Position numbers and translations under genes: made by a program
Shown here: positions 647 to 47,256 of the stretch, piece after piece
How the letters are laid out: each line of letters opens with the position of its first letter
Position numbering within the stretch: position 1 is the stretch's first letter
Assembly (NCBI GenBank): GCA_973895155.1
Contig: OZ316891.1
Coordinates: forward strand, 3,547,801-3,611,800
From: Marsupella aquatica
Taxonomy: Eukaryota; Plantae; Marchantiophyta
Reading direction: 5' to 3'
Length of the DNA stretch: 64,000 nt
Notes under the pieces: generated by a model
Databases searched by the model: none
Told to the model about the DNA's origin: nothing
What the model saw: the letters and a program-made list of their open reading frames with translations, nothing else

Positions 647-926
647 CTTGGGGGTTTCACTTCCACAAAAATGGCACACCACATGCGACAAAAGATAGGG
701 TCATTTTATTGGTTCTAAGTGAAGACATAAGAATTTTTTCAGAAGAACAATAGGATATTTTTAATCCAATTTTGAGACTGATAGGTGCATTAGGGTTTTT
801 TTAATCAAAATTTTGGGATATTCTAACTTTATAGGGGTCCAAATTTTTTTTAATTTACATTGTAGGGGGTTTGAGGCCTAGAAACATGCAGGTGATGGGG
901 AAGCCTCATATAGTGAGACCCCCAAG
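647..926 (+). mobile_element. MITE, CTCGGGGG-TIR family, copy 1
   Basis: Ends CTTGGGGGTTTCACT...AGTGAGACCCCCAAG. Perfect 8-bp TSD GTCAATCT at 639-646 and 927-934. Internal sequence matches five other copies in the window. Confidence 0.95.
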
Positions 927-3010: not shown

Positions 3011-3049
3011 AATTGTAGAGTCATTGAAGAATGCCAATGACTACATTAA

Positions 3050-6000
3050 GGGCAATATTGGCTGTCATATTAGATGTCATTTTGACCAAATGACTGCATA
3101 TGTCGTCATTCAAGACATCCCTCATGGTGTCATTATGGAAAAGCAAAAATGACCATTTTTGGTCTACGAGCTTAAGGTGGGCCCGAGTGTGCCATGGGCC
3201 CTACATAGAGGTGAAAAACTCTCCACTAGGTGCGGGACACTACACTCATCATTGTCCAACCACTAGTTGCAGCATAAACACTTTGGACACATGTTTTTCC
3301 GTTTACTTAAGGCATGATGCACCTTTGGGGAAATCACTCCCAAGTCATACGACTTTGGAGTGATTTGCCAAAAGTGTCACCATGGATGCATACCATCACA
3401 TCCAAACGCAAACAAAAGTGGTATTTTTGTTCTCTAAGAGAGAGTGCAACACCAATAGAATGGGTGTGGTTGTTGTGCTTCCCTATATGGTGTGTGTGCG
3501 GGTTTAGGGTAGAGGAATATTCTAACCTTGCAAGGAATCTAAAGCAGGCTCTTTGTGGAGGTACTAGGGCCTTTATTGGGTCATTTGTGAACAATGGTCT
3601 GTCATAAATGCCAATGACTAAAAGGAGGGTCATTAAAATTGTCATATGGGAAGTCATATAAGTCAAGTGACTGGGCTTGTGGTCATTTGTGTGGTTCCTC
3701 ATGCAGTCATTAAAGAGAAGCACAAATGACCAGTTTGGGACTAGGGACTTAAGGTGGGCCCGAGTGTGCCATGGGCCCTACATAGAGGTGAGAAACTCTC
3801 CACTAGGTGCGGGACACTACACTCATCATTGTCCAACCACTAGTGGCGGCATAAACACTTTGGACACATGTTTTTGCGTTTACTTAAGGCATGATACACC
3901 TTTGGGGAAATCACTCCCAAGTCTCCATGGATGCATGCATACCATCAGTTCCAAAGGTAAATGAAGCCATTTTTTTTGTCTCTCCAAGAAGTCGCGCAAC
4001 ACCAATGGAAGGTTGTCATACGTTTTAGGAACGTGTCATGTTTGTGCCAGTGTTTGGATGGGGAATACTCCATTTTGCATACGAATAGTGTCGGGGCATT
4101 GTGAGTAGGTGTTGTAATCTTCATTGGGTCATTTTGGAGGAATAGAGTGTCATTAATGCCAAAGACTACAATAAGGGTCATTTTGGCAGTCATTTTTTAG
4201 GTCATTTTTTAATGTGCCAAATGACGGCATATGGGGTCATTATAGAGGTCCCTCATGGTGTCATTATGGACCAACAGAAATGACCATTTTTGGTCTAGGA
4301 GCTTAAGGTGGGCCCGGGTGTGCCATAGGCCCTACATAAAGGTGACAACCCCTCCACTAGGTGCGGGACACTATACTCATCATTGTCCATCCACTAGTTG
4401 CGCCATAAACACTCTAGACACATGTTTTTGTGTTTACTTAAGGTATGATGCACCTTAGGGGAAATCACTCTCAAGTCATACGATGTTGGAGTGATTTGAC
4501 AAAAATATGACCATGGATGCATACCATCGTATCTAGCAAATGGAGCCATTTTTTGTCTCTCCAATAAGTAGCGGGACTTTGATTTAATTGTGTCATGTTT
4601 GTGTTGGTGTTTGGATGGGGAATATTCTATTTTGCAAATGAAGAGTAACGGGGCTGGTTAAAGGTAGTAATGTAATCTTTATTGGGTCATTTCTGAAAAA
4701 TTGTGTCATAGGTTAATGCCAATGACTACAAGTAGGGTCATTAAAATAGTCATATGGTAAGTCATATAAGTCAAATGACTGGACTTCTTGTCATTTGAGG
4801 GGTCCTTCTTGCAGTCATGAAGTAGAAGCACGAATGACCAGTTTGGGGCTAGGGGCTGGAGGTGGGCCCTAGAGTGCCATGTGGCCCCACATAGAGCTGA
4901 CAACCCCTCCACTACGTGCGGGACGCTATACTCATCATTGTCCAACCACTAGTTGTGCCATGAACATTTTGGAGTTATCTTTTTGCGTTTACTTAAGGCA
5001 TGATGCACCTTTGGGGAAATGACTCCCAAGTCATACGACTTTGGAGTGATTTGCCAAAAGTGTCACCATGGATGCATACCACCATATCCAAAGGCAAATG
5101 GAGCCTTTTTTTTGTCTCTCCAAGAAGTAGCACAACACCAATGGAAGGCTGGACATCATCCTTTGATCTAATTGTACATGTCATGGTTGTGCTGGTGTTT
5201 CAATGGGGAATATTCTATTTTGCAAATGAATAGTGGCGGGACACTCCAGGAGGTAGTGTAATCTTTATTGGGTCATTTATGAGAAAAATTGTGTCATAAA
5301 TGCCAACAACTACAATTAGGGTCATTAAAATGGTCATGTGGGATGTCATATAAGTCAAATGACTGGACTTGTGGTCATTTGAGGCGTCCCTAATGTTGTC
5401 ATTTAGGAAAACTAAGCAAAAATGACCAGTTTGGGGCTAGTGGCTAGAGGGACGCCCTAGAGTGCCATATGGCCCCACATAGGGCTTGCAACCCGTCCAC
5501 TAGGTGCTGGACACTCTACTTACTATTCTCCAACCACTACTTGCACCATAATTAATGTTGAGCCATGTTTTTGCGTTTAGCTAAGGCATGATGCAGCTTT
5601 GGGGAAATGACTCCCAAGTCATACAACTTTGGAGTGATTTGCCAAAAGCGTCATCATGGATGAATATCTTATATTCCAAAGGCAAATGGAGCCATTTGTT
5701 TTGTTTGTCCAAGAGTTAATGCAACACCAATGGAATGGGCATGGTTGTGGTGCTTCCATCTATGGTGCATGTGCGTGCAGGTTCAAGGTAGAAGAATATT
5801 CTAATTTTGCAAGAAATCTAGGGCGGGCTCTTTTTGGAGGTACTAGGGCACAAGTTGGTCATTTATAAAAAATGGTGTCATAATTGCCAATGACTACAAG
5901 TAAGGTCATTAAAACAGTCATCTAGGATGTCATATAAGTCAAATGACTGGACTTGTGGTCATTTGAGGCATCCTTTGTGCAGTCATTATCAAGAAGCACA

Positions 6001-6720
6001 AATGACCAGTTTGGGGCTAGGGGCTGGAGGTGGGCCCTTGAGTGCCATGTGGCCCCACATAGAGCTGACAACCCCTCCACTAGGTGTGGGACACTTTACT
6101 CATTATTGTCCAACTACTAGTTGCGTATTGAACACCTTGGAACCATGTTTAAATGCGTTTACTTAAGGGATGATGGAACTTTGGAGAAATCACTCCCAAG
6201 TCATACAACTTTGGAGTGATTTGCCAAAAGTTGCACCATGGAAGCATACCATACTATCCAAAGGCAAACAAAACATATTTTGTCTCTCCAAGAGGAAGTG
6301 CAACACCGATGGAATGGGCGTGGTCATGGTGCTTCCCTCTATGGTGTGTGTGGATTCAAGGTAGAGGAATATTCCACTTTTTTCAAGGAATCTAGAGAGA
6401 GCTCTCTTTGGAGGTACTAGGGTAGTCATTTAGGAGAAGCACAAATGACCAGTTTGGGGCTATGGGCTGGAGGTCGGCCCTACATAGAGCTGGCAACCTG
6501 TCCACCGGGTGCATGACACTCTACATACTATTCTCCATGCACTACTTGCAACATAAACACCTTGGAATATGGGGGTTCTCTTTTGGAGGTACTTGTGCTT
6601 CATTGGGCCATTGATGAACAATGCTAGGTCATAAATGCCAATGACCTTATATACTTAGTGTCATTGTGGCTATGAGGAGAGAGGTTAAAATGACCAAATT
6701 GGGCCAGGGCTAGAGGTCCT
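3050..6720 (+). repeat. Satellite-like array of ~570-bp units (about 6.5 copies) inside the CACTA element
   Basis: Marker (C)TCCACTAGGTGCGGGACAC recurs near 3221, 3798, 4352, 4907, 5495, 6075 and 6500, spaced 554-588 bp apart with the last unit truncated. The look-alike short ORFs here simply reflect the repeat. Confidence 0.93.
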
Positions 6721-11670: not shown

Positions 11671-13839
11671 ATACCTAGATTACATGGTTTATGGGACTAC
11701 AAATTCACAACCAGCTACGTAGTCTCAATGTGATGCATTTTTTGCTCTGATGCATATGACCTGTATTTTCCATTTGCTGATACAGGAGCGGGAAACTACA
11801 AGCTACCTGACATGAAAGGGACAACCACACTGTGGAATTCCAGATTGCTTAAGAAGCAATAGTTGTAGATTTGAGGGATGCAGCTCCTGTACAAAGTATA
11901 ATCATAACTTTTTTGATTCATTTGTTGATCACAAGCTTGATTGCTGGAGAATAGGATTAGATGCTCAACAGTATTCCAGTGTAGATCATTGATGAAATAT
12001 TGTATGACACTCAAAATGACATTATAAATAATGTGCATTATGATATCCAAAATGAGTCCATCATGTATGACATTCCAAATGAATTTATAAATGACGTGTG
12101 TTGTGACATCATTTTAATGACGCCTTCTCAAGTCATTTCCGTCATTGGAAAATGACATCTTTTATGACTGTCCAAAATGACTAAATGAAATACGTCATTT
12201 TTTACAGATGAAAATGACTAATGAAAATCGTCATTTTGGACAGATCCAAAATGACAACTAAGTATATCCATGTGTATCACACAATGATCCACATGGTGGC
12301 TAATGATTTGTGAGAGCTTTCGTCATATTAGACATGTCTGAAATGACAAGAATTTATTGCCCCATGTTGATTATGAAAGATGCCACATGTCTATGGTTCA
12401 TTTGTTCAAAATATGGGTCATTCTGGACATGTCTAAAATGACATTATTTGTTTAGTGGTTGGACACGTGGCTTTTTTTAATTGGTGACGGTGACCGTCAA
12501 TGGTGAACGGCACAAGACCGTTGATGACACTTTTTTACATCATTTTGGACTGTTGGTCATTTTGGACCTTTGGTCATTTCTAGTAATTTTGGACAATAAC
12601 CAATGACCATGGGATTTTTGCGTCATTTGTCCGATAGGACCATGACGCATTTGTCCAATGCAACGTGTCTGGAAAGACACAAACAAATGCGTCATTGGTT
12701 TGATGAAAAGACCATGTCAATAGTCATTGTTACAGTCATAAATAACCCTGTTTTCTACTAGTGTTTCTTGGTCACCTTTGCCCCACTCTGTCAAGAATTG
12801 CTCAACTTGTTTTCTCTACTCCATTGAAATACCAAATAAAAGTAGAATTCTTGGAACCAAATCAGCTTTGGAAGGATACATAGTACAATTTTGGTCACTT
12901 CCAATGAAGAAAGAACTCACAACAGCTGTTAGCACCTTAGACGTGTACAGATTCTCATCGACAATGCCGTGGTAGCTCGGCAATCTTATGCAACACTAAA
13001 GTTTTAATTTTGTGCATGTTTGCCAGTCTCCTTGTAATCTTTCACCTGGTTCAGGACGCTGTCACCAAGAGAAGGAGATGGCTGGGACGGAAGGATGCTT
13101 TAATTTTTGACTTGGTGAAATTGTTGCAACTTTTTTAGGGGCTTTTATTAGGGGCAGTAGCTCTTCTAGGTTTTTTGGTGAGTTACGGCTCTCTAGACAG
13201 TAGCTCGTTAGACTACTGCCCTTTAGAATGTAGCTGTTCTTCCTGCTATCGTCATTGACCTGTGGTCTGGTGGCTTTTGATGGCCCCTTAGACGTTTGAC
13301 CTTTCCTGCTTTAGGTCCTCTTTTCTTTTTTTCTGACTTCATGTCCCTTGTGTTGCTCGGGGGTCTCACTCCGCGAAAACAGCACATCACGTGCGAGAAA
13401 GTATAGGGTCCATTTATTAGATTATAGGAAAGACTTAAGAAGATTTGTGTAAGAACAATAGGTTCCAATTTATTCATAAACACACTTTAAAGAATGATAG
13501 GATTTTTTGGGGGGTCCACTTCCATGGAATGGGTTGAGGAAAGATAGGGTAATATGCTACAGGAAAAAAGAGTATACACGTGTCACTATGGGATTGGGCC
13601 ATGTGGCACTCATTTCAAATTAGGGGCTACTCGATCGGGTAGTCCACATATTTGAGGTGGCAAGAATTTTGGATGGGGTATATACGTGAGTGGGGCCGGG
13701 TTTCAAGGACCTGGCCACATGTTTAGGGTTTGGGGGCCCGGGACCATTTTGAATATGTCCCATGTTAGGGCGGCTGTTTCCCTCCACTCTTTGTTGGCCA
13801 AGCCCAGTTCATTCCTTGCCTTGACGTTGTCCAAAGGGA

Positions 13840-15270
13840 GTGTTGCTTGCGCTGCTAACGGGAGTGTAGTCCAAAGCGAGTGTTGCGCAGCACCATGAGC
13901 TGTTGCGAGGGAGTCGAGGGAGCCGAGGATGGTGAGTGCTGAGTGTTCCACTCCTGCACTGCTGCCGGGAGCTATTGCTTTGTGAGGATTGCGAGGGAAG
14001 TGAAAGTTGTGCTGTGAGGGAGGCGAGGGAGGCGCTACGAGGGGGGCGAAAGCTACACTGTAAGGGAGGCGCTACAAGGGAGGCAAAAGCTGTGTTGTGA
14101 GGGAGGCGAGGGAGGCGACAGAGGTGAGTGCTGCACTATGATCAAGGGAAGTGTTGCGCTGCTAAGGAGGTGAGTGCTGCGCTGTGAGGGAGGCAAGCTA
14201 GGGTCGGAGTGCTCCGCTGTGAGGGTTGCAAGTGCTGCGCTGCTTGCTCAAACGGAGTGCTGCTCTATCAACTCTGGTATGGGAGTGCTCTTAATTTCTT
14301 GCTTTGACAATCAGGCTTTCTATGGATTGAAGTCATGTTCCAAATCGTAGGCTTAGTCAAGAGGAAGTAAGTTGCTTGCTTTGTTTGTGCTTCTCACTTT
14401 TTGCTGATTGAAATGAAGTGCTTTCGATCAGTTGCAGTTGGGCTGCGAGGTGGGCTACAAGGTGGGCTGCGATCGGGTTGGGAGTTGGGCTGCAATCTGG
14501 TTACTAGGCTGTGACCTGAGCTGGGCTGCATTGTGTTGCAATTTGTGAGTTGCATTGCCTGCAATCCGGTTGAGAGCTGAGCTACGCTGCTGCTGCAATC
14601 AAGTGCTCTTGGACTGCTGTTGCGATTGAGGCTGTTGGAGGATTGTTGCTGCAATTGAGGCCGGTGCTGCGATTGAGGCTGCTGCTGAACTGCTATGATT
14701 CAGAGCTATTGGTGAGAGACTGACCTTCCATTGTTGAGCTACGTTGCTACATTGAGCTACATTACTTGACCTGGTACTTTGCGCTGCGAGGTGGGCTGCG
14801 ATCGAGTTCAAAGTTGTGCTGCAATCTGGTTGAGCTGGGCTGCAATCCGAGCTAGAGCTGAGCTGCGCTAAGTTGCATTGCTTGCTTTGATAATATATTG
14901 TGCTACTCGCTGTGCTACTCGTTGTGCTACTCGTTGTGCTACTCGCTGTGCTACTCGGTGAGGTGATTTTACTTTGAAGATGAACTAAGTGCTATGAACC
15001 GGCTTATTGTAAATGGGATTGTAAAGGAGTTATGATCAAGCTCTAGTGAGCTCTCACAACAATGTTGTTGTTGATCAATGTTGCGCTGTAGCTAGATGCC
15101 ATTGCTTGACGTTGTGCTTTCAGCTGCATTTTCAGTTGCTGGGGTGCAATCAGGTTGAGAGGTGGGCTGCGCTGTAGGGAGAAACACTGGGCTGCCTCTG
15201 GAAATCAGAAAATCAGCTGAGACAACTTCCAAGCCGGGAGATTTCCAGGGAGATTTCAACTACGTTCAGG
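13840..15270 (+). repeat. Low-complexity GC-rich repeats in the element's left arm (GCTGC/GGGAGG motifs; TGCTACTCG(C/T)TG array at ~14900-14958)
   Basis: Degenerate short repeats are directly visible. Possible donor/acceptor pairs suggest a spliced 5' leader for the accessory gene (inference). Confidence 0.6.
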
Positions 15271-16334
15271 TACGGTCATTTTTAGAACTCGCTCCAGAGC
15301 TTAGTCTTCAAGTGAGCAATAGTTCTAGCTCATAGTGGAATAGGATTGACAACTCTTGTTCTACTACGGGGTATCGTTGCAGACTGAGTGATTTGTATTT
15401 TATTCATTGCTTATTGGAACCGAGGCTCAAACCAAAACTTGCTTTGTTTTCAGGCTCCTCTGGCTGTTGGACTGCTGTTGAGTTGCTGAGGGCTAATAAA
15501 AGTGTCCCATTTTTTACACCTCAAAGTGAAATCAAGTATGACTTAGGGGACTCGAACATGTTTGCAACATTAATTGCATGCTTACTAGTCTGGACCAGGC
15601 TCTGGACACTACATTGAAACTTGTTTTGCTTAGCTATCAATTTTGTAAGGACTAGGTCACACATCTTTGTGCGAAAGTGTGTTCATGTTGGGAAATTTTG
15701 ACCAGAACTTGTTGCTGGATAGTTCTTATTGAATGATTCAGTTCACCCTCAGGTAGTTGCAGGGGTACAGGCAAAGCAAGGGGCTGTTGAGGAGCACCTA
15801 TCTTTATGCTTCTGTAACCTCTACTAAAATGTTGAGTTGAGGTATAGTACGGGACCTGTGCTGGTATTAAATTTTACGTCTGTCATTTCCATCCATGACT
15901 TCAACCATTTCTAGTCGAGCAGAAGTTTGTTTAGCTTCAAATGTAGTAGGGGAATTCTAATGTAGTCCATGAAGTTAATTTTGACATGTGGGCAATGTTG
16001 CTTCTATTCACCAGAGTTGATGTTGAGCTGCTGGCGGATCAAACTCTTTTTGAAGTGTGGTGCCTGGAGACGTTGCAAGATTCTTTAGGTCTGTCAAACG
16101 CAGAGGCAGTTGAGGTGTTGCCCCATTCTGATTACTTGTAGACATTGTTACTGGTAGACATTGTTAATTCATCATTTACAAAAAAGTGTCATGGCTATAT
16201 TGAAGATTACCCTAGAGGAGAATTATGAGAAGCTCCTTTTGCAGCATCCAGACGAATGCTGCTGGTGTGAATCCTGTGTCAAGTGCAGGGTTGGCAATGG
16301 CAATTTTTAATGGTTCCATTGCTTTTGCTTGAAA

Positions 16335-17586
16335 ATGCGCGGAAGACTTGTTACTAGGACATACATGGCAAAGAACGGCAAAGTTGTCACACGCCGCTGG
16401 AAGTGCTCTTGTATAAGGCCAACCATTTGGCCTCAAAATGAGTGTCTTTTACGCAAGATTGTCATCCCGGACACGCTTGACATTGTAGTCCCTGATAGTA
16501 TTCCACATATAACTGAGCTTGATATTGTAGCCCTAGATAGTATTCCAGATCAAGCTAAGGTTACAACCCATGGATGCTTGACATTGTAGTCCCTGATAGT
16601 ACATGGATGCGTTGTTCATATATGACTAGGCCTTTGTTTGCAAGGCTGCAATTGTACCATCCATGATATATGAGAATATTTTTCATTCCCATTATGTGGC
16701 AAAGTTTTGCAAGCTGGCATTGTATTTATGTATGTCTTGGTTGGTCTGTGCTCAGGTTGCACTGTGTAGTTGACTTCATCTGGGAGGGAGGTTTGCAGAT
16801 CGTTGGAGCAGGTGCTATGATTAACCTTATCTTTGTCTATGGATTGCCGACTATCATACATGTCCCCCTCATATGTGATGTGCTTTGTGATGATTGCAGT
16901 TGTAACCATGCCGACAAGGAATTCAAACATGAAGAAAGCAACACAGTCCTCTGACAAAGGAGCCTCTTTAGAAGAGGTATTGTGTATTCCGTTGTTCTCT
17001 GAGCAAGAGATTCTACAAACTAGCCCTCATGTTTGTGAAATTTGTGAGCATGGTGGGAAGTTGGTAATTTGTGATGGGCCATGTCACAGGCAATTTCATT
17101 ATGTGGTTGGAGATGAAGCCCCTAATGACTCTTGCCCCTGTGTAGTCCTTCCCCTCCATCGTGGAGGGAAGCCATGGTTTTGCCCAAATTGTAACCAGGA
17201 CCAGGCCATGTGTTATGGGTGCCGCACTGTGGGACCGTCACCTACAATTGTGCGAAAATGCTCTGATCATTTTTGTGTACGATTTTATTGCTTTGGGTGT
17301 TTGGTAGCTGATGCAAAGTCCTGCCCATTGCATACATGTGTGACATGTTATCAGAGTCTTGAGGGTACGTCAGATGGTCAAGAACATGGTACAATGTCTA
17401 CGATGTCCAAATGCCTGGCATACAGATTGTCTCCAAATGATCAAAAGCAAAGGGTTTGCTCATGATAGGGACATCTGGGAACATGAAGCACATGGACAAC
17501 AGCGACAAATGTTTTATTGCCCCCGTCATCCTATTGATCCACACCTCAAGACTCCAATCTGGGACCACATTTCATGGCTCCAATGA
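16335..17586 (+). pseudogene. Transposon-borne EDM2-like (NSD-type) tandem PHD-finger gene, frameshifted
   Basis: 17030-17586 reads VCEICEHGGKLVICDGPCHRQFH...WFCPNC...CYGC...KCSDHFCVRFYCFGC...CPLHTCVTC [frameshift ~17370] QCLRCPNAWHTDCL...FYCPRHPIDPHLKTPIWDHISW. This matches the EDM2 PHD cluster and its YCxxHxIDxxLxTPxxDHI tail as I recall it. The upstream part is decayed and has three DIVVPDS-type repeats at ~16480-16600. The start is uncertain. Confidence 0.8.
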
Positions 17587-19213
17587 TCTGAATAATGAAC
17601 AAACCTATTACTTAGGTTTCAACGTCGTAGTGGAGTATGAGCAAGGCAAATACTTAAGCTGCATCATGGGTGGTAGTACTCAATTTTATTAGTGTTGACC
17701 ATTTGTCATAATTAAGGTCACTAATAGTGCTGCATTTTGATGAGCAGAAGCACTAAACCTCAGGAATTGTTAGAAAACCAGGCGAAAAGGATATTTTGTC
17801 CAAAGATATTTTATCCAACTTTAACGGTATATCATGATTTTCACTCAATACATTTTGCATGTATGATGGATTGCATTATAAAGTGTTTTGGCCTATTAGC
17901 ACTTCTTTTGTTAAAAGTTTGCTGACAGTATGTATATTACATGAGAATGTGTCTGTTGTCATTGCATCTCTTGAAAATCCTAATGTTTTTGCATTGTGTG
18001 TATTTCAAATGTATTTGTGCAGGTCTTCTTGTTATCGACTCCAAAAGCAATTGTGCTATGCATGTTCTAGATTTGTATTGCAATGGCAGCCCCTAAACCC
18101 AACTCTGTGAAATTAATACGCAAAGTTGGGGATGACAAGGCTGATTTACCAATCTGTGTTTTGTCATTCAAAGGACACACCCTACATGATTTTAGGGCTC
18201 GTATTGGCTCTACTCTAGACTTTGACTTTGATTTTTGGGATGAGAGACTTCCTGGTCGAGTGAAACCTGTACATGAGAAATTAATTGATCTGTCTAAGTT
18301 GGATGGAAGAGTTATTGTCACATCATCAGCCTTGGCCTTAACTCGGGCTTCAGCTTTAAACGGGCACCTCCTTCGTAAATATGAGGGTTCGGGCAGGGAG
18401 GGAAGAGCGTAATGCACCTAATTCATGTAAACTAGCGCTAAGTGCGCCTACTGTTAGATACGAACATCTCCTAGGTATGGTTTGTGTTCTGCCGCCGGAA
18501 CGTACCTTAGTCGATAACAGGATCAACCCCGGCTTAAGGACTTCTAAGCCTTCGTGTTGTCCACCTTCGATCCGGATTCTATGATACAGGTCCTCAACCC
18601 GTGCTCGCAACCACATACCCGCAAGCTGCACCCCGTGCACGACTCGGGTAGTGCATTCGGCCCGGCGTTGTCACCTATACACGAGATTCACACAAACATA
18701 CACGCGTACAAGCATACAATCTCGATTTACACGAAGGAAATAATGGGAAAGGATTTTACTACATAGGGGACATGTGCGTACACTTGGTTGACCCGATAGC
18801 TCCGAAATGAACAGGTTCAAGGCCGAGAGAGCATACTACAACGGAGCCCGGCTCCGCACTCGCCCGACGAGCTTAGTCCTACCCCCTCCCCTTGGTACTC
18901 TTTCACTCCCAGAGGTCGGGACTCCCCGCACATACCACGGATGTCCAACTCTGAGACTAAAAAGCCCCCCTGCCTCTATCGAGGGGTGCACTAAATACTA
19001 AGGGCCGGGGAATGGAGTGTCCTCCCGCCTGAAGATTTGCTGACTTAGGTCCTAACTAATCTGACTGTCAAGCCGAAAAACGGCTGTGTCTTATTAGAAG
19101 ATCTTAATCTACGTAGGCTGGACAGCATGGCAGTGCTGCGGTAACTAAGGCAGGTGCCTGTCCCAATAGCCTGACTTAGCTACTCCTAACCCTATTCTAT
19201 TCCTACTCCGCCG

Positions 19214-22103
19214 CTAATGCCTGGCACGCTTGCCAGGGCCGCCCGAGTGGGAGCGGCCATCCCGCTGCTTACGAAGTCTGTCGTTGTCCGCCTTGAGGAG
19301 CTGGACCTGGTCCAGCAGAGATTTGTTCTCTCGCTTCGCCGCGTCTGTCTCCTCTGCTGCCTCCTGGCATGCCTCCTCCAGCTGCTGGGCATCGCTCGTC
19401 AGCTTTCCCGCCAGCTGGTCCTGCTTCTCGGCTTCGGTTTGGAGCCGCGCCACTTCGGCCTGTAGCGTGGCTATCTCCGCAGTGTCTTGCTGGGCCCGTT
19501 CTTCGGCCTCCTCCAGGTCTTTCTACCAGATGACAGTTTGATTCTTCAAACTGTCAATCTGGTTCCGGAGTCGTGCAATCTCGGCCTCGTTACCCAGCTT
19601 TGGCCTGCTCGGCTAGGCGGTAAGGGCATGCGCCTTTGCTAACAAATCATTGGCGGCTGCAACTTTGGGTCGTAGTTGCAGAAGCTCAGCCTCTTGAGCC
19701 GCAACTTCGTTCTTTAAGTATACGGACTCCACCCAGTATCGCTCTATCCTCTAAAGGGCCTCTGGCTGGGCCCGACCTGCCTTTACTGCGGCAACTAACT
19801 CCTGATTGAAGAAACAAGCTACCTTTCGGGCCATGAACTCCCCGGTATCCCGGGCAATTTGATGAGAGAAATCTCCCAGAAGCCCGTTCAGAAATGTACC
19901 CGGTACGAAGAGTTCTGGGTGGTCCAGGTTGTGCCTGTCCGGAGTTGGGCACGGGCAGACGTCAACACGCGCGGGGGCCGGGGTAGTGACATCCAGCCCT
20001 GGGGATCGACGCAATGTTGGAAGGGGCTGGAGTGTCCTCCTGCAGCAATGTTCAGTTTTCTGGAATAGCCACCGGTGGGTCTTTGGGAGACCCGGGCTCG
20101 AGTAAGACCTCCGCTGTACCGACTTCGATACTTAGCCTGTCCTGTTGGATCGCATCTACGGTTGCGATAGCCGACCCATCCGGTACCTCCTTGGTTACGA
20201 CTACAACTACTTGTGGAGGTAGGGTGGATGAAGCTTGCGCGTCCGCTGGACTTCGGGCCTCGGGTTGGGGCCATCTCTCCAAGGCCGGAAAAACCCACCT
20301 AGCTGGGACCAGCTTTGTAACGTTGACACGAGGAAGGGTTTGTCGATCAAACCGAGCGTACCACTCAAGAATGATCTCGATGTGGCTAGCAAAATACGCC
20401 TTCCCGCCAATGTACAGCGTCTTCCTTTGCCGCTCCATCTCTTCATGGAATTTCTTAGCGAAGTACGACGCCCACTTCCTAGGTCGATAGTTCTTGACCT
20501 GGATAACCTGGGCGGCGGAGATCTCCCCCCGGGGTTCCATCATGTGGAGGGCGTACCTTTGGAACTCCAGTCGCTCAGCTATCTCGGGGATGAGGCAGGT
20601 CCTCATCACAAACCCGTTGTCCACTGCTCCCTCTGAGGGAAAACTTGAGGATTGGTACTTGGCTCCCTTGCCCCCGGGAGCCCGTGATTCGACTCGATGG
20701 TCACCTTCGGGTAATCCGAAGATCATCTTGAGCCGTTCTTCCATGAGGGACATATTCCTTCCCCGCAGCCGAGTATGTTGACGTGCGTCATCATAATTCT
20801 TGACGAACTCCGTCATGTCCTCCCGGTAGTACCTGCAAGTGTTCCAGGGGAGAGAGGCGAGGTGCTTGAATCCCTGAGTCTTCAAGTACATCGCATGCTT
20901 GGGATGGAGGATGTTCTTATGCACGTTTTCCCCCATGCGGTGCATAGTCACCTTGGCCACGGCTACCGTGGCCAATGGTAACCCGGATGCAGTGGCGGGT
21001 TTCTTCCTCTTCTTCCCCCATGACTGGCTCGGGGAAGGTGACACCTCCCCATCCTCTCGATCGGGGATAGGTAGTGCTACCGCCGTTAGTATTGGTCCCG
21101 GGGGCCACGGTCACCGTGTTGTCTGCTGGAGCCGCTCCTTGGGTCCGAGCATGGGGAGGGGACGATGTAGTGTCGGCCCCCTGAGTGTTTGCTCCTCTGG
21201 GCCACCTGAGCAAGGGTGGGGTAGCCTCGTCGTCGTCGCTAAGGTCCACAGCGTTGATGACGAAGCGTACTTGTACTGCTGGCGGGGCGATCGGTGGTGG
21301 GGGTTGGCTAGGCTGAGGCTGAGACTGAGGCTGAAGCTGAGCCTGAGCCTGAGTCTGCGTTGGTGCGGGTACGGGTATGGGGTCCACTGGGCTGGCGCCG
21401 GCGGTTGCGGGTCTAGTTCCCATGAAGCTCTGCAGGTGCTGGTAGAAGTTCTCCGAAGCAAGTGCGGACAACCTTGTCGAACGTGTAGTGTTGGACTCGC
21501 TGTTGATGATAGCCCGAACCTGAGCAGGGATGTGGTCAAAGTGATGTCGTTGCAAGTCGATCATACCCGGGATATTGAAGACCTTGTCCAAAAGCCAAAG
21601 CTCGGGGGTCTCACTATATGGGGACCTCCCCATCGCCTGCGACGTTTTTAGGCCTCGGACCCCCTAAAATGTAAGAAAAAAAATTTATTTTTTAACCCCT
21701 ATAAAGTTGGAATATTCTTGGAATATTCTAAAATTTGGATTAAGAAGACCCTTATATTCTTATAAGTCTCAAAATTGAATTTAAAAGACCCTATTGTTCT
21801 TCTACAAAAATTCTTAAGTCTTCCCTTAGAACCAATAAAATGACCCTATCCTTCGTCGCACGTGATATGCCATTTTTGTGGAAGTGAGACCCCCGAGAGC
21901 CAAAGCAATGCTTCCCAGAAACCGATGTATTTGTCTCCGTTGAAGAAGTACCCAGATACCTCTGCTGGTCGATAAAGCTCGCTCTGAGACGGGTAGTCAA
22001 AGTTAAGGATGTAGTGGTGTCGTCCTGCTAGGCGGATGGCTCTCTCGTACTTGCATTCGATTTTGTATCGGCGCGGGTTGGCGTGTTTCAATGAGTCGGC
22101 CAA
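19214..22103 (-). pseudogene. Long accessory ORF of the LTR-type insert: Pro/Gln-rich linker, Athila-ORF1/plant-transposon-protein-like domain, C-terminal coiled coil
   Basis: ORF pieces 21846-22103 and 20917-21633 join once the MITE is removed (GFWEALLWL|LDKVFNIP). 20052-21044 contains EFVKNYD...LRGRNMSL...LKMIFGLP, resembling the EFYAN...VRG...LGLP motif of Athila/Tat additional ORFs. Heptad-rich 19214-19750. Frameshifts and stops present. Confidence 0.65.
21601..21897 (-). mobile_element. MITE, CTCGGGGG-TIR family, copy 2 (nested in the LTR-type insert)
   Basis: Perfect TIRs CTCGGGGGTCTCACT and AGTGAGACCCCCGAG. TSD AGCCAAAG at 21593-21600 and 21898-21905. Confidence 0.97.
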
Positions 22104-22269
22104 GTGTCTTCCGGTAGACCGGAACTGCGTCCAGAATCAAATGGCCGAACTGGAGAGGATCGTGTGCGACATTTAGAGGAGATAGTAGTGGCGACTAAGA
22201 GAGAACGAGAGAGCTGGGGTCGAAGCTGGCACGTGGACTGATGGACTGGTGCACTACAAAGGGTCGGCT

Positions 22270-22283
22270 CCCTTTTTATATAC
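22270..22283 (-). promoter_or_regulatory. TATA box of the insert's accessory gene
   Basis: Minus-strand GGTATATAAAAAGGG about 170 bp upstream of the ORF, followed by a CT-rich leader. Confidence 0.5.
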
Positions 22284-25200
22284 CTTGAGGGCTTATCGAT
22301 CCCCCGACATCTCCTTGTTGCTTATAGGCTGAACCGTTCACGCTTGTAGTGTACCGGCGACTCCGCCGGTCTGAGTCACCGCGTGTCAGTGGATGCCTCC
22401 TGAAGTTTGTTATACGGACCCGAGGGAGGGGCCCCTCCACGCTTGTAACCCGGGCGTGCGAATGGCGACGCGCCACCAGCCCGAACATGAATTTCCCTTA
22501 TTGACTAATGATTTCCTACTCATAATGGCTACCTAAATACTATCGTTATGCTAATCATAGCGGCCTAAGATAACCCTAACGCGCATGCTAAGCACGGTTT
22601 AGACTGAATTACTCATTACTCGCTGTACCGGCGGCGTCACAGTTATTGTTGTACAACAAGAACTTGGAGATGGTGGGAGGATCCCACCAGTACCCTATCA
22701 TCCTTGCACTCCTGCATCATTGGGTCCAAATACTAGGACACCACAACTGGGGCCAACAGCACCAATACCCTCCCCTATAAGGGCTTCTTTTGAGTCACAA
22801 TTGATGGGAGATGTCCCATCAAAGCTATGGAAAGATGAGTGGATGAGGTTAGAGAAATGGGTACATAAGAAGGGTTATGGTGATCACAATTGGAGAAGTC
22901 GTACCTGGGATGAGGGGACAGATGTTTGAGGGCATCTGAGTGTCTTGAATGTAGGGAAACTTATGGCAATGCAGACAACTCTCATAACCCTAAATCCATC
23001 TCCAATTGCTTTAGTAATTTTAAGACCAAACACTTGGTCTTCAATAAGCACAAGGATAACTATTGTCGGATAAGGGGCATTCCTTCTACTTTGGTTCAGA
23101 TAGCAGACATCTCTGAGAAGCCAGAATATGATCATGCAAATGCCATCAAAGTAGGCATTGAGATAGTTCAGCGATTGAATGCGGAGCTTGGGGATGATGG
23201 CAAACTATTCTCTATTGTTCCTGATCCCAGTACTCCTGAGTATGCAAACAGGTCTTTCCTATTTAAGGTTCGTTGTACTGTCTGTGGAATGCTTCACACT
23301 GACTTGTGCCCCAAGAAGCTTACCTTGGAGCCCAATTTGAGGACACACTTAGTGAGTCGAGATCACTTGGATGCATTGGAGACAAGGCATGACACAAAAA
23401 TGCTTGCCTTGAGGTCTGGGAAGAGGGGCAGGCCAAAGAGGACTGATTCTAGGGACCTACATCCTGGTCAGAGCGGGATTTTGAAGTTCTTTAAAGATGA
23501 TGGGTCCCGAACAGGCAGCAGTTCAGGTTCAGGTTCAGGTGTGTGTGAATCTGTTGATCTTGGTCTGAGTTTGCTTTGTTGGGGATTATGGGTAGAGAGA
23601 GGTGTGCCTCGAGTGTTATGGAAGGGTATATCTTATGATATTTCCAGCATTTTGGATGATCAGTCTGGGGGAATTACATGGCATTGTGAGCCAAGTTGTT
23701 GCTTGGATGTTTTCCATCCAAGAAGAGACTGTGTTGTGAGTATAGCAGGCTGTTTTAGACACAAGGATTGCTTGAGGTTATCAGAGAATGGAGGAGGATT
23801 TGAAAATCTAACTTGTAGTGAATGTGATTCTATAACACTAGAAGATGATTTTCGTGGACGGGTGCACAGGGAAGCGGAAGCAGTAGTCCACAGAGGGAGC
23901 CGAACCACTGCTGGTGGTATACGATTGGATTATTTGACCAACCCAGAGTTAAGAGATCCAGTGCACAAGCTGAACTCTGTGCGACGAAAAGAGCGTTGGT
24001 TGTTAGCTTTGCAGGCTCAGAAAGTATGTGCCTTGAGCACCAGGAAAAGAAAACTAGAGGAGTTGTTAGGAGTTGCAACAGACAGGAAGGATTTGAGATT
24101 GTTTCTTAGGAGTATTTTGAATGGACACAGGAATGGTGCATTTGGTGGTAAGGAGGGTTTGTGGGATTTCTTGAAGGATGTAGCTCGCAATTTAGGCAGG
24201 AAGCCAAAAGGTAATCATTACACTCAGTAATAGGACTCGAGCTATTGCTCAGGTTATGTTCCAATTTGGGGGCCGTCAAGTTGCTCATTGTTTTGCACGA
24301 AACTTGACAGCCCCTAGCCTTGTGACCCTAAAACGTGATAGAGCAAAACTCACACCTTTTCAAACCGGGTTACGGAAGGAAACCTTTCAGGAGATTGCTA
24401 GAGTGTTGTCTGCTGCAAAGCACTCATTGGGCATTGAGGGGGATGTGCCTGTTATCTTTGCTGAGGATGAAACAAGGATCAAAGAACGCCCTAGGTAATT
24501 GGAACTGGACGTTTTTCCAATTGTTTTTTTAATGACTTTACAAGTAGCACTTGGCTGGAATTTCTCTGATATTGAAAAATTGCATGTCTGTGTTTCAGGT
24601 GGGAGGCAAAGTATGATACTCTCATTGGTTTTGTGGACCTTCAGAGCAGCATGTATGCTCCTATGGTTTGGAAATTCTAGTTGGTGAAGGTGATGAGGGG
24701 TATGATAAAATTGTAAGTACATTTGAACAATGCCCCAAGTGCATGTATGCTCGAGTTGTGATTGTGAATCCTCTGCATGAGTCCTTACCTAAATTGGTTG
24801 TGTGTGCACTGTCTTCCAACTTGTAATAAGTTCACAGCTTCTTGGGTACGAGAGCATTGGGTCCAGTTAAAGGCTTTTTGGGATGAATATTGTAGAGCTA
24901 TGGTAGGCCCTTTGCTTGGACATGCTAGTGATGGTGATGCACGTCGCCGAAAGTTGATGCTGGAAGATTACAGAGGGCAGAATGGATCATACCCAAGGTA
25001 CGGAGTTGGGTGGGAAGGGTGGGCTTACTCTGTTTCAATTCTACCAAATGGGGATTTGTATGGCTTTGGTGACAAAGACCAACCTCATAATGGAAAAAAG
25101 ATGATAAACCCCTTAGACAGAGTGTCTTCTTTACTGGTGCTAGGAGATCAACATGCATCATTATTTATGTAGCTAATGTCTACAATCATTATCCAATTCA

Positions 25201-27089
25201 TGAACATGGCATGGCTTGGGATGATGTGAATAGGGCTGACCGGCATAATTGGGCAGTTCCACAACAAATAGCAACAAGAAGAGTGCAGCAATGTCTGAAA
25301 GATATGTATGAGAGGAGAGATGTACAACATGAACAAAGTTTAGGAACTCAGTTGTACTTGGAGATTTGTGCAGATAATTACTTAGATATTTTCTTTTCTC
25401 CAGTTCATGACTTGAGGTCCCGTATTGTGTTAGCATCCAAGGTTTCGTTCTTTCTACGGTTGTGGAGATTGTGGTTTAGGTTTGGTGACCATTCAGTGGG
25501 TGGGAACTTTGCAGCACACACTAAGAAAGACATGATGTCTATATTCAGGCCTTTCATGATGTTAACATGTCATGTCATTTCATTGTGTTGTTAATTTGTG
25601 CCTTTCAAGATAAGTTCCCACATCTAGGTGTTCCCTTTCACTTGCTAGGTTTGGATTGTTGTGAGATTTTCTTCAGCAAGGTAGGAGGCATGAGTGGCCA
25701 TGAGCAAAATTATGATTTTGGCTCTCTGTTGGATAGTGCTGTTGGACTGAACCGGCTTGCTGCCCTGGAATATGGACCAAAAGGCTTGAAGATAGGTCGT
25801 TCACATAAGAAGCAAGATCATGTGTGGGGGAAGATTCATCCTATAGGGGAAGGGGAGGAAGCACCAAATCTACTTGACTATTCTCTCATTGAGACTAATG
25901 AATTCGTGGTTGCAACCCTTAAAGAAGGTTTTGTTGCTGCTAAGGATCTTATGCATCAATTGCAGATGTCTCCACAAAGTTCCTTACCAACAGCTAGAAA
26001 GAGATGGTGGACATGTCCTTGGGTTGTGGAAAGTGAGACCTGGCCACTAGAGGTGGTTCTGAAGGAAGCAGTTGTTTGCAATGATTCTGAGGAGCAAGTA
26101 GAGCACCAACCACCAGACATAGGCCCTCGCCCAACTGGAGATTTTCATGAATTGGAAGATCCTGAGGATGATCTGAATAGAATAGATGCATGGTTAACAG
26201 AACCAGATCCCATTGTTGTTCCTGACATGCATTCAGATGATGTACATAGAGATGATATACAGTTTGATGTAGACCCCATAGATGAGCTTGAGACATTAGG
26301 CCATGAAGTTCGGCATATGTTTAGATCAGTTGTCCATGCTGTAACTAATGCGCATAATCGTACCAAGGTAGTGCCTACTGTTACTTATGAAGGCAAGGTG
26401 ATTTACAAATCCACTTTGGTAAGCCAGCTGGTAGGCAATCCACATTTGTCAAAAGATAGGCTGACAAGAGTGAAACAAGTGCTATACTATAGTCCCGACT
26501 ATAGTACTCGCAAGAGAAAAGTGCAAGAAGCCAATCCTAACTCATGTTTTGTTGATGTTGGCACTGATTGTGCAATTGCATTTGAGTCTGATGATAATCC
26601 TGCTCCAAGTACTAGATCTGGAAAAAAAGGGAGGAAAGAATAAAGCTGTGGTGGAAGCAATCTCAGCAGGTAAGAAATATTTTTGGTTGGGTCGGATTGT
26701 CCAAATGAGACAAAAGTATGGTAGTAGGTGGGGCAATTGTCGGTCACCAATTGATTTGATGGATAGGCCAACTCCACTCGCAGGGCAATCAGGTAGCATT
26801 TGTGAACTGTTGTTAAATTGGTATAGTCCTATTGGTAAGAGCAAAAGTGAATTCAGATATGATACCACTGATTTGAAATGGATGGATATTGAAATGGTCA
26901 TTGCTAGTGTTAGCTTAACCATGAAAGAAGGGGTTATGGATCGTATCTATGTCTTGGATCCAATAGATAGACGTGCATTGGATCAGTATCTTCAAACAAT
27001 GGTATGAATGTTATGCTACTGTTTAGTTTTTGAGAGTATATATTTTTTGTTTTGTTTATATTAGTGGGTGTAGTGGGATAGGATAGGGG

Positions 27090-27149
27090 GTGACGGATTG
27101 GCAACTTGAGATCCTTTCTCAATTAGGGGTTCAATTCCCCTCCGTCACA
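27090..27149 (+). ncRNA. tRNA-like (mascRNA-like) 60-nt structure in the transposase 3' region
   Basis: 7-bp acceptor stem GTGACGG/CCGTCAC plus discriminator A. 9-nt D-replacement ATTGGCAAC. 5-bp stem TTGAG/CTCAA with a 7-nt loop. 5-bp T-stem AGGGG/CCCCT with canonical loop TTCAATT. Confidence 0.65.
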
Positions 27150-28325
27150 TGTTACATCTCTCAGCAGAAGTTTTCAATGGAGTATGGATGGAGTATGTGA
27201 TTGGTTTCAAATTGATTGGTGATGGAATGGATTATTCATGTTGTGACCTTAAAGGCCATCCCACTTATGTACGCAAGGTTTATATTGGGATGACCTTTAG
27301 GTACACAATATAAATGATGCATTGAAATGATCAAAGTTTGAGGTCGAAAAAGGTGCAAGAACTGTTGCAGGGCGTGCCATGTCTGACATAACTTCACAAG
27401 GTACTGGCATAGACTTATCTTTTCTTTCTAGGCATTTTTTATTGATATGTGACACCTTACTTCACAAATTATAGGGGCAATACAAATTGGATTTTAGACT
27501 CTTAGAAGAAAGAAAGGGGGAGGAAAAAAATTTCAACTTAATAAGTATGGGGGTCTAGGCATGAAAACGTCGCAGGTGATGGGGGGTCCTCCATATAGTG
27601 AGACCCCCGAGTTGTGTTGTGCCTCTCTTTGATGGGGCTGTCTCCCTCGGGGCCTGGCCCTTGGTCCCTGGCCTTCTGGCCGTTGTTCTGGCTGTTTTGG
27701 CCCCCCTTCCTGTGGGTTTTCACAGGCTTTACTTGAGAAAAAAAATTTAAAATCACCTGGTTCTTCAATGCCTCATAATGTAACCTCCCGTGTAACCTAG
27801 CTATCAAAGGCACCAGGGCCATCCACCTGTCTCCTGTATCAATGAACAAATACATGAACAAATATAATCAAAATCATACTCAGTGTAAAAGTATGACAAA
27901 TTAACACATAAGCAATCCAAAATACATTCACCAACTAGGCATTAAAACATATGCAATTACAATTACATCACAAAATACATTCACGAACTAGGCATTAAAA
28001 CGTATGCAATTACAATTACTTCACAAAATACACTGAACAAACTAAACTAACTTAAGGAATGGGAGAAAAAGCATAAAGAATGGAAAAGGGCACCTCAATG
28101 GTGTTAGTTCAGCCGCATCTATGTTATTTACTCTACTGCTATGTGCGGGTGCATCTTCTTGTGCAAAAGCTATGCACCCACAACTGTCATCCCAACAATT
28201 GGAGTCTGCTCAAGGAGGATGGGAAGTCTATGAGCATGTCGCTCCCCTCTCCTTGTCATCGTGCCCATCTCATAACTTTTGCCTGTCAATTCCTCCAGCT
28301 CCTTGCTCTTCAGGGTACACAACAT

Positions 28326-28793
28326 CATCAGTTATCAGTGACTGATAACTGATATCAGTCGCTGATATCAGTTATCTCAAAAATTTTAGAATCTCAGCTG
28401 AGGAGTTGAGATGGGGCCTTCGAACTTCCGCTCATCTCAGCTGGGCAGCCGAGGTTGATTCAATCTCGGCTGACCTCGCCGAGATGGGCGTACGAACCGA
28501 AAAAAAAAAAATTTTAAAAACCAAAAAAATTCCCAAAAAAAAAAAATTTGAAAAAAAAATTTGAAAATTTTTTCCCCATCTCAGCTGGGCTCGCCGAGAT
28601 AGGTGTCCGTATGGTACGGATGTCTCATGGCGAAAAAATTTGAAAAAAAAAAATTTCCTTCAAATTTTGAAGAAAAATTCAAGAATTTTTTTTTCTTCAT
28701 TTTTTTCTTTTTCGCATCGCAACTTGGCGGCCTCTCTGAGATGAGGTGGCAGCTGATATCAGGTACACTAATGAAAGTGACTGATAACTAATG
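28326..28793. mobile_element. Fold-back / MITE-like element (hAT-like CA termini)
   Basis: TIRs CATCAGTTATCAGTGACT and AGTGACTGATAACTAATG. Internal repeats ATCTCAGCTG and CTCGCCGAGAT plus poly-A/T tracts. No intact TSD found. Confidence 0.6.
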
Positions 28794-30309
28794 AGATTAC
28801 TTATCTCTTGCTCTTCTTATATTGTTGCGTCACTATACTACCCGACCTCTCCAAACATTTCTTTATAATGTATTAGTAATTGAGCTCGTCAACGCCTTTT
28901 TCTTTCCTTGTTAGCCCAAGCACCCGCACCATTAGCAGCTTTAGCAACGTCTAAAGCAATGCCATGTCCTACAGCGTTTTCTCCCACAACATTTGTATCT
29001 ATCGAAAGAACATCCGATACACCGCGTTTTTTTAGCTCTCGTTGTACGGCGGCCCAGGTTCCATCTCCAATACAATAAAAGAAACCTATATGAACAAACT
29101 TGGGTCCTCATCTCATGTCTTTTAGCATTTTTGCAGCCTTATGCTCCTCCTTCCATTTAAGAATTCAGGAGGAAGGTCCCTGGGAAGGTCACAGTCCATC
29201 CTTTCTCCCATCCTTTCTCGTTGCTTCAAGAGGCAGCAAAGTTGATTCATTAGCTGCAACTCCTGTCACTACCACAGGTGAAACACAGATGCTCCCTCCC
29301 TAAGTGGTGGCCTTGGGCTTTGTCTACTTACTGATTTTGCCATTTTCAGCCCACTTACTGGTCTTGTTGCTAGGAGGGCAGGGTAGGCAACTCCCCTTTT
29401 ATAATGACTTTATATTCAATTGACAATGACAAACTTCTCAACACAAGAAATAACTCCTAAAAAATGGAATTTGTTTGATGTGAACAAATGAATTGAGGAT
29501 TGGGTGGTGGGATTCTTTTTTAATTTTAAATTTTGGTAATTGTTGCGCTGAAATTGTAATTGGTGCATTGTTTCAGCAATAGCAAACTGTAACAAATTTA
29601 CTGCAGTTAACCCTGGCTAGATTTCCCACTTCTCTAGACTTGCAAGTACTCCTCAATTGCAAAAACCCTGGGACCCAGGAGGGTTTGCACTTAGGGAGAG
29701 ATAACTGTATCACTGGTCACTTCACGACAATAAGGTACAGATTATTTACAGCATCAAAAAGATGTTGATCGAAATATGGGTTACTATTCTAGCATCCATC
29801 AAATGCATTGTTTGGTTATGCCTACTTCATTTCCTTCACCTGTTGCAAGCATATGTAAAGGCGAGGAGGGGCTTCCCTTTGGATAAGAGAGTGGACCTGC
29901 TACAAAAATACCTTGGGAATTATGTATCAACCTGCCAAAAACTAACAGGTGCCCAACCAGGAGACGTGATCCCAAGTCATGATCCCAAAGGCTAATGGCC
30001 CAATAAGGGAGTTGAGTTTTGAGTTGTTGCTTTTAGGCCTGTGTACAAGTTCACTATTCTGCAAAGGGCCAATAGTGTTGCTCTTATTGCCTTCAAACGA
30101 ATTTTCTTCATCATGGCCCTCCTATGGATATGATTTCCTCATGAACCTTACCGAATGTGGGACTCTCAAGCTTTGTAGCTCTTTGGTCTTCTTAGGTTTT
30201 TCCCTTGTTTTCATCCCTTACTTGGGTCGTCTGCCTTTGGGGAATTGTCTCTAGGGTGGAGGCTTCTTGTTCTTTAAAAATAGCTGTGATATTGTACAAG
30301 GGAGTGCAG

Positions 30310-43803: not shown

Positions 43804-44066
43804 CTTAGAGGTCTCACTATTTGAAGACGTCCCCATCACCTACAACGTTTTTAGGCCTTGGACCCCCTAAATGTAAGAAAAAAATATTTTTTCAACCCAT
43901 ATAAAAATTTGGTTAGACCCTATTGTTTTGATAAGTCTCAAAATTGGATTTAAAAGATCCTATTGTTCTTTTGAGAAAATTCTTAAGTCTTCCCTTTGAG
44001 CAAATAAAATGACCCTATCTTTTGTCGCACGTGATATGTCATTTTTGTGGAAGTGAAACCCCCAAG
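43804..44066 (-). mobile_element. MITE, CTCGGGGG-TIR family, copy 3
   Basis: Ends CTTAGAGGTCTCACT and AGTGAAACCCCCAAG. TSD CTTCAACA at 43796-43803 and 44067-44074. Confidence 0.95.
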
Positions 44067-45003: not shown

Positions 45004-45287
45004 CTCAGGAGTTTCACTTCCACAAAAATGACACATCACATGCAACGAAGTATAGGGTCATTTTATTGGTTCAAAGGGAAGACTTAAGAATTTTCTTTGA
45101 AGAACAATAGAGTATTTTAAATCAAATTTTGAGACTTACAAGAATAATAGGGTCCTTATAACCAATTTTTTGGAGTATTCCAATTTTATAGGGGTTGAAA
45201 AATTAAAAAAATCTTTCATTTTAGGGGGTCTGAGGCCTAAAAATGTTGCAGGTGATGGGGAGACATCCATATAATGAGACCCCCGAG
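45004..45287 (+). mobile_element. MITE, CTCGGGGG-TIR family, copy 4
   Basis: Ends CTCAGGAGTTTCACT and AATGAGACCCCCGAG. TSD GGGAATTT at 44996-45003 and 45288-45295. Confidence 0.95.
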
Positions 45288-46651: not shown

Positions 46652-46936
46652 CTCGGGGGTTTCATTTCCACAAAAATGACATATCACGTGCGATGAAATA
46701 TAGGGTCATTTTATTGATTCAAAGGGAAGACTTAAGAATTTTTTGAGAAGAACCATATGGTCTTTTAAATCCGATTTTGAGACTTATAAGAACATTAGGG
46801 TCCTTGTAACCAAAATTTTGGAATATTCCAACTTTATAGAGGTTTAAAAACAATTTTTTTTCTTACATTTTAGGGGGTCCGAGGCCTAAAAACGTTGTAG
46901 GTGATGGGGAAGCATCCATATAGTGAGACCCTCGAG
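46652..46936 (+). mobile_element. MITE, CTCGGGGG-TIR family, copy 5
   Basis: Ends CTCGGGGGTTTCATT and AGTGAGACCCTCGAG. TSD TGTACTAT at 46644-46651 and 46937-46944. Confidence 0.96.
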
Positions 46937-46981: not shown

Positions 46982-47256
46982 CTCGGGGGTCTCAATATAC
47001 GGATGCCTTCCCATCACCTGCGACGTTTTTAGGCCTCGGACCCCCTAAAATGTAAGAATTTTTTTAAAAAAAATTAACCCCTATAAAATTTTTGGTTATA
47101 AGGACCCTAATGATCTTATAAGTCTCAAAATTGGATTTAAAAGACCCTATTGTTCTTCTTAGAAAATTCTTAAGTTTTCCCTTTGAACCAATAAAATGAC
47201 CCTATACTTCGTCGCACGTGATATAATGCCATTTTTGTGGAAGTGAAACCCCCGAG
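46982..47256 (-). mobile_element. MITE, CTCGGGGG-TIR family, copy 6
   Basis: Ends CTCGGGGGTCTCAAT and AGTGAAACCCCCGAG. TSD CCCATCTC at 46974-46981 and 47257-47264. Confidence 0.96.

Follow-up and report, generated by a model that had tools for sequence, protein, structure and literature searches.

The question raised by this locus is whether a tRNA-like fold lying just beyond the stop codon of a transposase gene serves the transposon that carries it, or is a passenger there. The window, by which we mean the whole 64-kb stretch of DNA that was analysed, contains one such fold. Its letters (27090-27149) read GTGACGG ATTGGCAAC TTGAGA TCCTT TCTCAA TT AGGGG TTCAATT CCCCT CCGTCAC A, and its parts are as follows.

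27090..27149, plus strand: tRNA-like fold, with a 59-nt body (27090-27148) plus discriminator A27149
27090-96/27142-48, plus strand: 7-bp acceptor stem, GTGACGG/CCGTCAC
27097-105, plus strand: 9-nt D-replacement loop, ATTGGCAAC, with GG at 27100-01
27106-11/27117-22, plus strand: 6-bp inner stem, TTGAGA/TCTCAA, around the 5-nt loop TCCTT
27125-41, plus strand: T-arm, 5-bp AGGGG/CCCCT around TTCAATT, preceded by a 2-nt linker TT

A preliminary description had reported a 60-nt sense-strand fold with three perfect stems. The acceptor stem, T stem and TTCAATT loop were as described, and all 18 of the 18 stem pairs are Watson-Crick, including 12 of 12 in the acceptor/T stack. The inner stem had been given 5 bp but is better drawn with 6 bp and a 5-nt loop (-24.5 kcal/mol) than with 5 bp and a 7-nt loop (-22.1 kcal/mol). 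In the 7-nt register the loop would be ATCCTTT, with A32 and U37, whereas tRNAs normally have a pyrimidine at position 32 and a purine at position 37. The D-arm is indeed replaced, with the GG retained; the replacement, first described as a short TTGGCA loop, spans 9 nt. A D-stem in this region could have at most a 2-bp U-A helix, which is 4 kcal/mol worse than the open form. The minimum free energy of the fold has a z score of -4.66, with none of 200 shuffles equally good, and the fold persists in a longer sequence context with acceptor pair probabilities of 0.39-0.77.

A pattern consisting of a TTCRA loop and a 12-bp T/acceptor stack was scanned against the 64-kb window and against block-shuffled (local) windows. 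The window contained two all-Watson-Crick matches, the fold at 27090 and a true tRNA-Pro, and 400 block-shuffled windows contained none; looser versions of the pattern matched 0.76 times per shuffled window. Given the top half of the structure, the 6-bp inner stem has p ~0.03, and 0.003-0.009 when combined with the GG. No second copy of the fold was found within the window. ARAGORN, run on the window, did not call the fold as a tRNA. The comparison with the Rfam mascRNA-menRNA model that the preliminary description had proposed gave the lowest E-value of any model between 26000 and 28500, exactly on 27090-27148, but at 23.0 bits and E 0.13 this match lies below the gathering threshold of 42.5. 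The tRNA model RF00005 scored 20.8 bits on the fold coordinates, below its cut-off of 29, and at gathering thresholds Rfam returned no match for the fold. As ARAGORN made no call and both Rfam scores were sub-threshold, we conclude that the fold is a real structure of tRNA-like origin or design and not a tRNA gene.

The fold lies in a 14.3-kb P-like transposon (13356-27611) with identical 15-bp terminal inverted repeats (TIRs) and a perfect 8-bp target-site duplication (TSD); the sense orientation and the location inside a TIR element that had been claimed for it are both borne out. The element has the following features.

13356..13370, plus strand: left TIR, CTCGGGGGTCTCACT, with the TSD TTGTGTTG before it
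16821..17465, plus strand: PHD-finger-like ORF (NSD-type), likely cargo (PF23011, E 1.7e-5, 25.3 bits, below the cut-off of 27)
18082..18411, plus strand: likely N-terminal transposase piece (E 5e-4 against the ORF of the homologous locus L002)
18412..22639, no strand: sequence of ~4.2 kb that interrupts the transposase gene and is likely a nested insertion (approximate bounds)
21601..21897, no strand: MITE of 297 bp, with the TIR type of the big element and its own direct repeat
22640..27007, plus strand: main part of the P-like transposase gene, start approximate, with ~7 frameshifts and one premature stop
27597..27611, minus strand: right TIR, 15 bp identical to the left, with the TSD TTGTGTTG after it

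Position 21601 was considered as the left TIR of the element and rejected, as it belongs to the MITE. The transposase gene has a likely GT-AG intron near 24497-24599. The PHD-finger ORF, upstream of the transposase, is either cargo or a second gene of the element. The sequence before the transposase measures ~4.7 kb here, compared to ~0.6 kb in L002. The segment 18412-22639 holds, besides the MITE, a minus-strand 352-aa ORF (20052-21110) without a Pfam match, and paired LTRs were not found in it. Six MITE copies of ~260-300 bp occur in the window (647-926, 21601-21897, 43804-44066, 45004-45287, 46652-46936 and 46982-47256). They are 77-85% alike, share the TIR type of the P-like element, most with 8-bp direct repeats, and constitute a dense non-autonomous family of this element.

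Sequence searches of Pfam and the PDB left the transposase unclassified, and no Pfam family scored above its cut-off. Its class was assigned from a structure model of the closest relative, P0045, whose best matches were 6p5a (Z 14.9) and 6pe2 (Z 14.6), the next row standing at 6.9. The catalytic core of P0045 superposes on the Drosophila P transposase (6p5a) with an rmsd of 3.9 over 255 residues; the Foldseek E-value is 2.4e-3 and the mean pLDDT of the model 63. As the model is closest to the Drosophila P transposase, we class the element as P-like. TIRs with an 8-bp TSD are shared with the P superfamily, and L002 likewise has an 8-bp TSD; the transposase of ~1,500 aa and the bryophyte host set the element apart. 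Our literature search on P elements in land plants found no paper. In the bryophyte P-like transposases (~1,500 aa) the modelled C-terminal domain is BAH-like (P0045 residues 615-762, Z 5-6.9), and such a domain could possibly be a histone-reading targeting module.

The stems had been noted as intact even though the transposase has decayed. They are perfect, but this carries little weight. The transposase frame contains ~7 frameshifts and no stops in 1,265 aligned codons, with one premature TGA near 22927 in the segment adjoining those codons. In simulations, 3% substitution gave 4.3-5.1 expected stops, implying a substitution load of ~3% or less for this copy. At that load the chance that 36 paired bases stay untouched without selection is at least 0.33, and the TIR and TSD pairs of the element, which are unselected, are equally perfect. 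As the substitution load is low, the intact stems are uninformative on selection in this copy, and any selection on the fold acted earlier, in the active lineage.

A metagenome scan gave 36 homologous loci, all distant from the element (mostly 30-50% protein identity). The 20 with a locatable stop were used for the tests of 3' regions and the other 16 were left out; the 20 represent ~13 distinct 3' ends, with 151 nt or more past the stop in every case, and six loci could be read to the right TIR (L002, L003, L004, L006, L028 and L029). None of the 20 distant loci, including these six, carries the fold after its stop in either strict or loose scans. Applied to all 36 loci (206,733 nt), the strict scan returned six rows, corresponding to two distinct AT-rich sequences, none of them all-Watson-Crick, which agrees with an expectation of 2.4. 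Within 1,500 nt past the stop, the loose scan found imperfect matches in 9 of the 20 loci. These were scattered at 183-1447 nt, and we judged them to be chance matches. Rfam, run on 15 of the 36 loci with E-values up to 10, gave no tRNA or mascRNA match. From the absence in these 20 distant loci we conclude that a superfamily-wide RNA feature is refuted; a lineage-specific one is not. Closer protein relatives, P0045 (58% identity) and P0046 (55%), are both on Logan contigs, and two scans of viral contigs found no transposase relatives. A good reference copy for the family is the locus L002:192-6287, where the P-like element is complete: its open frame runs to 1,520 codons, and TIRs and an 8-bp TSD are in place.

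The surroundings of the fold bear on its possible role. The transposase stop is TGA at 27005-27007, a position that agrees with the C-termini of homologues. The fold follows it in sense orientation, confirming the placement in the preliminary description, with 82 nt between stop and fold, and lies 462 nt inside the right end of the element. The flanks contain the following features.

27008..27089, plus strand: 82-nt spacer from stop to fold, T-rich then G-rich, with no A-rich tract
27047-27088, plus strand: weak G-U-rich hairpin ending at the predicted RNase P cut (z -1.0, non-significant)
27215..27333, plus strand: long imperfect hairpin with 47 pairs predicted, starting 65 nt past the fold (z -7.14)

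T-rich tracts do precede the fold as had been remarked, but they are ordinary: the T fraction of the 3' tract is 0.48, compared to 0.24-0.52 in the 20 homologous loci, and a T-rich 3' end is usual for this transposase family. No A-run of three or more occurs in 27008-27089, and the last 30 nt before the fold comprise G15 T8 A7 (50% G), so that protection of the RNA 3' end in the manner of MALAT1 is not supported. The base at -1 of the fold is G, and a T4 run begins at 27171, 22 nt downstream. The hairpin at 27215-27333 is the strongest among 11 examined 3' regions, the next being those of L009 (-6.1), L001 (-4.9) and L011 (-4.5). Its mismatches comprise five of G-U type and two of A-C type, giving no clear strand bias, and the hairpin could be a small-RNA precursor or a DNA-level inverted repeat.

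The closest known counterparts are mascRNA and menRNA (RF01684) of MALAT1 and NEAT1. Like these, the fold has ~58-60 nt, a 7-bp acceptor, a canonical T-arm, a shrunken D region with GG, and a long inner stem with a small loop on the sense strand; mascRNA lies downstream of a long Pol II RNA. The layouts are also close, with acceptor strand 1-7, D 8-16, anticodon-like arm 17-33 and T 36-52 in the fold, compared to 1-7, 8-18, 19-33 and 34-50, respectively, as given for mascRNA (PMC11693755). The earlier label of mascRNA-like thus stands for the tRNA-mimic shape and proportions; it does not extend to membership, with 23.0 bits against a cut-off of 42.5 and without a real D-stem such as the short, base-tripled one of mascRNA. 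In addition, the fold follows a coding gene, within a DNA transposon of a plant, and is known from a single copy, whereas mascRNA belongs to a vertebrate lncRNA. In action the fold would resemble mascRNA or a t-element at most, and it is not a member of RF01684. The cut MALAT1 RNA is described as ending in a genomic A-rich tract (PMC7583470), and no such tract, to form a triple helix with a U-rich loop, lies upstream of the fold.

Other systems share parts of this arrangement. Plant mitochondrial t-elements are likewise non-decoding tRNA-like folds beside mRNAs, and are reported to be cut by PRORP1 to make RNA ends (PMC3858429); the liverwort fold differs in being in the nuclear genome, inside a transposon. 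Plant tRNA-snoRNA genes and the gammaherpesvirus TMERs, the latter described as Pol III hybrids of tRNA-like and miRNA parts (PMC4337559), also place a tRNA or tRNA-like unit before a structured RNA, which would be freed by RNase Z. However, in those the tRNA or the Pol III promoter is complete, whereas the A-box region of the fold is largely gone and the hairpin is 65 nt away. The ENE or dENE elements of transposase mRNAs from plants and fungi (for instance the hAT element TWIFB1) are structured RNAs just after a transposase gene that govern RNA fate (PMC7583470, PMC13541005). As described there, ENEs have a stabilising effect on the RNA and bind its poly(A) tail; the liverwort element has a tRNA-like fold and no ENE. 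A review among these sources describes tRNA-like processing as what distinguishes MALAT1 and MEN-beta from the others, and according to another paper no lncRNAs except MALAT1 and NEAT1 are known to mature via tRNA machinery (PMC12941219). In the literature searched, mostly open-access full text, the elements known from this position are ENEs that bind poly(A), and no DNA transposon was described as having a tRNA-like signal for processing.

Our analysis leads us to read the fold as a family-restricted RNase P/Z cut signal that would end the transposase RNA without poly(A) and free a small RNA and the downstream hairpin, although our confidence in this reading falls just short of even. The parts read by RNase P and RNase Z are kept and the decoding parts lost: the acceptor/T stack, the TTCAA T-loop and the GG are present, and the D-stem and the tRNA-type bases at 32 and 37 are absent. 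PRORP is reported to require the acceptor/T stack, the T-loop and G18/G19, with a dispensable anticodon arm (PMC4975455). According to the same source, PRORP1 does not cleave a substrate lacking the D-loop, stem-loop substrates slow PRORP2 and PRORP3 by a factor of 26 to 67, and a G at -1 may change the rate or site of cleavage. Plant tRNA-snoRNA precursors are described as being split by nuclear RNase P and then RNase Z (PMC3858429), and the elbow formed by GG and the T-loop of mascRNA as recruiting both enzymes (PMC11693755).

Transcription from the transposase would run across the fold, which would adopt an L shape. Nuclear RNase P (PRORP) would then cleave this transcript at 27090, and RNase Z after A27149. 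Three products are predicted: a transposase RNA without poly(A), unprotected and ending in the weak G-U hairpin; a small RNA of ~60 nt to which CCA could be added; and a downstream fragment with the 120-nt hairpin, which could feed small-RNA production. The net outcome would be a brake on transposase output, with the mRNA limited rather than stabilised. As no MALAT1-type triple helix is present, limitation is the likeliest net effect. The fold would have no bearing on the mRNA if polyadenylation took place upstream of 27090. A fuller account is that a liverwort P-like transposon lineage independently evolved a mascRNA-type mimic, that PRORP and RNase Z end its transcript without poly(A), and that the CCA-tailed RNA and 120-nt hairpin so released give element-encoded small RNAs and self-control; taken as a whole, we regard this as rather unlikely. 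RNA mobility had been suggested for this fold; movement via the phloem (PMC13293983) is rejected because the host lineage is likely a non-vascular liverwort. Of the proteins compared with a neighbouring host exon, that of Calypogeia fissa is 88% identical, those of Riccia and Marchantia are 79-80% identical and those of other plants at most 66%; the host is therefore probably a leafy liverwort.

Among the points that count against a cut signal are the single known copy, the reduced D region and the other likely cargo in the element. The main rival is a passive origin, in which this element, or an ancestor not far back, picked up a degenerate tRNA, an organellar t-element or the head of a SINE on a single occasion and derives no function from it; we consider this a sizeable possibility, albeit well below even. 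The absence of the fold from all 20 distant 3' regions agrees with such a capture. Capture also stays plausible in view of the PHD-finger ORF, which resembles cargo, and the element holds a long 5' region as well. The copy is young enough to retain its stems without selection. Searching prokaryote and phage collections for the acceptor GTGACGG/CCGTCAC together with the T-loop consensus gave 128 sites. ARAGORN called tRNAs at 82 of these, which by a count of the listing comprise 46 His, 27 Cys and 9 of other types, so the acceptor does occur in real tRNAs. A G at -1 is typical of tRNA-His, as found at the fold, and the combination of G-1 with the GTG start is only His-like. However, those matches were pre-selected by the search pattern, and by eye none of the 128 matches the inner 28 nt. 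Because the pattern itself chose the acceptor and the inner 28 nt are common to none, no donor tRNA is named. Beyond the T-loop, the fold has no likeness to the tRNA-Pro of the window. Of SINE features it has a B-box, a reduced A-box region and no tail; no convincing TSD or A-tail flanks it, the best repeats being an AT-rich 9-mer and a 6-mer at chance level. Finally, 18 of 18 Watson-Crick pairs with the D-stem deleted around the GG and the loop recoded would be unexpected from random decay. Separately, two phage sequences, L124:301-362 (minus strand, 62 nt) and L157:301-356 (minus strand, 56 nt), have the same acceptor and a full T-arm without a tRNA call and are short tRNA mimics.

Alternatively, the fold could act at the DNA level or form a Pol III unit by itself, its B-box GGTTCAATTCC, which matches the consensus, binding TFIIIC. 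Such a unit might yield a short tRNA-like transcript or a TMER-like tRNA-plus-hairpin transcript, or serve as a chromatin barrier near the right end. The T4 run at 27171 and the strong hairpin after it (z -7.14) fit a Pol III unit, but the run precedes the hairpin and would exclude it from the transcript. The A-box region is mostly deleted, and a B-box alone needs neither a perfect acceptor nor an inner stem. Moreover, the hairpin has no clear strand bias (5 vs 2), and hairpins with z of -4.5 to -6 are also present in L001, L009 and L011. We therefore consider this explanation improbable. A chance fold in a G/T-rich 3' region, with which the low Rfam scores (23 against 42.5; 20.8 against 29) and the frequent loose pattern (0.76 per shuffled window) would agree, is very improbable and already largely refuted by the shuffled-window scan, whose 400 windows gave no all-Watson-Crick match while the sole other match in the window is a true tRNA, and the inner stem and GG contribute p < 0.01.

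If the fold is functional as a cut signal, RNase P/Z 3'-end formation would extend to a nuclear coding transcript, DNA transposons would have a new route of self-regulation, and the 59-nt fold would offer PRORP a naturally occurring substrate of smaller size than the tRNA spacers on which multiplex constructs for plants rely. As cargo, it would be no more than a curiosity. The window contains three further units: a canonical tRNA-Pro(AGG) gene at 52669-52740 on the minus strand; a MITE-like unit at 28325-28794, which has internal repeats between inverted ends of 19 bp and lies ~700 nt beyond the right end of the element; and a tandem array at 3011-6645 of ~580-nt units that are 70-79% alike.
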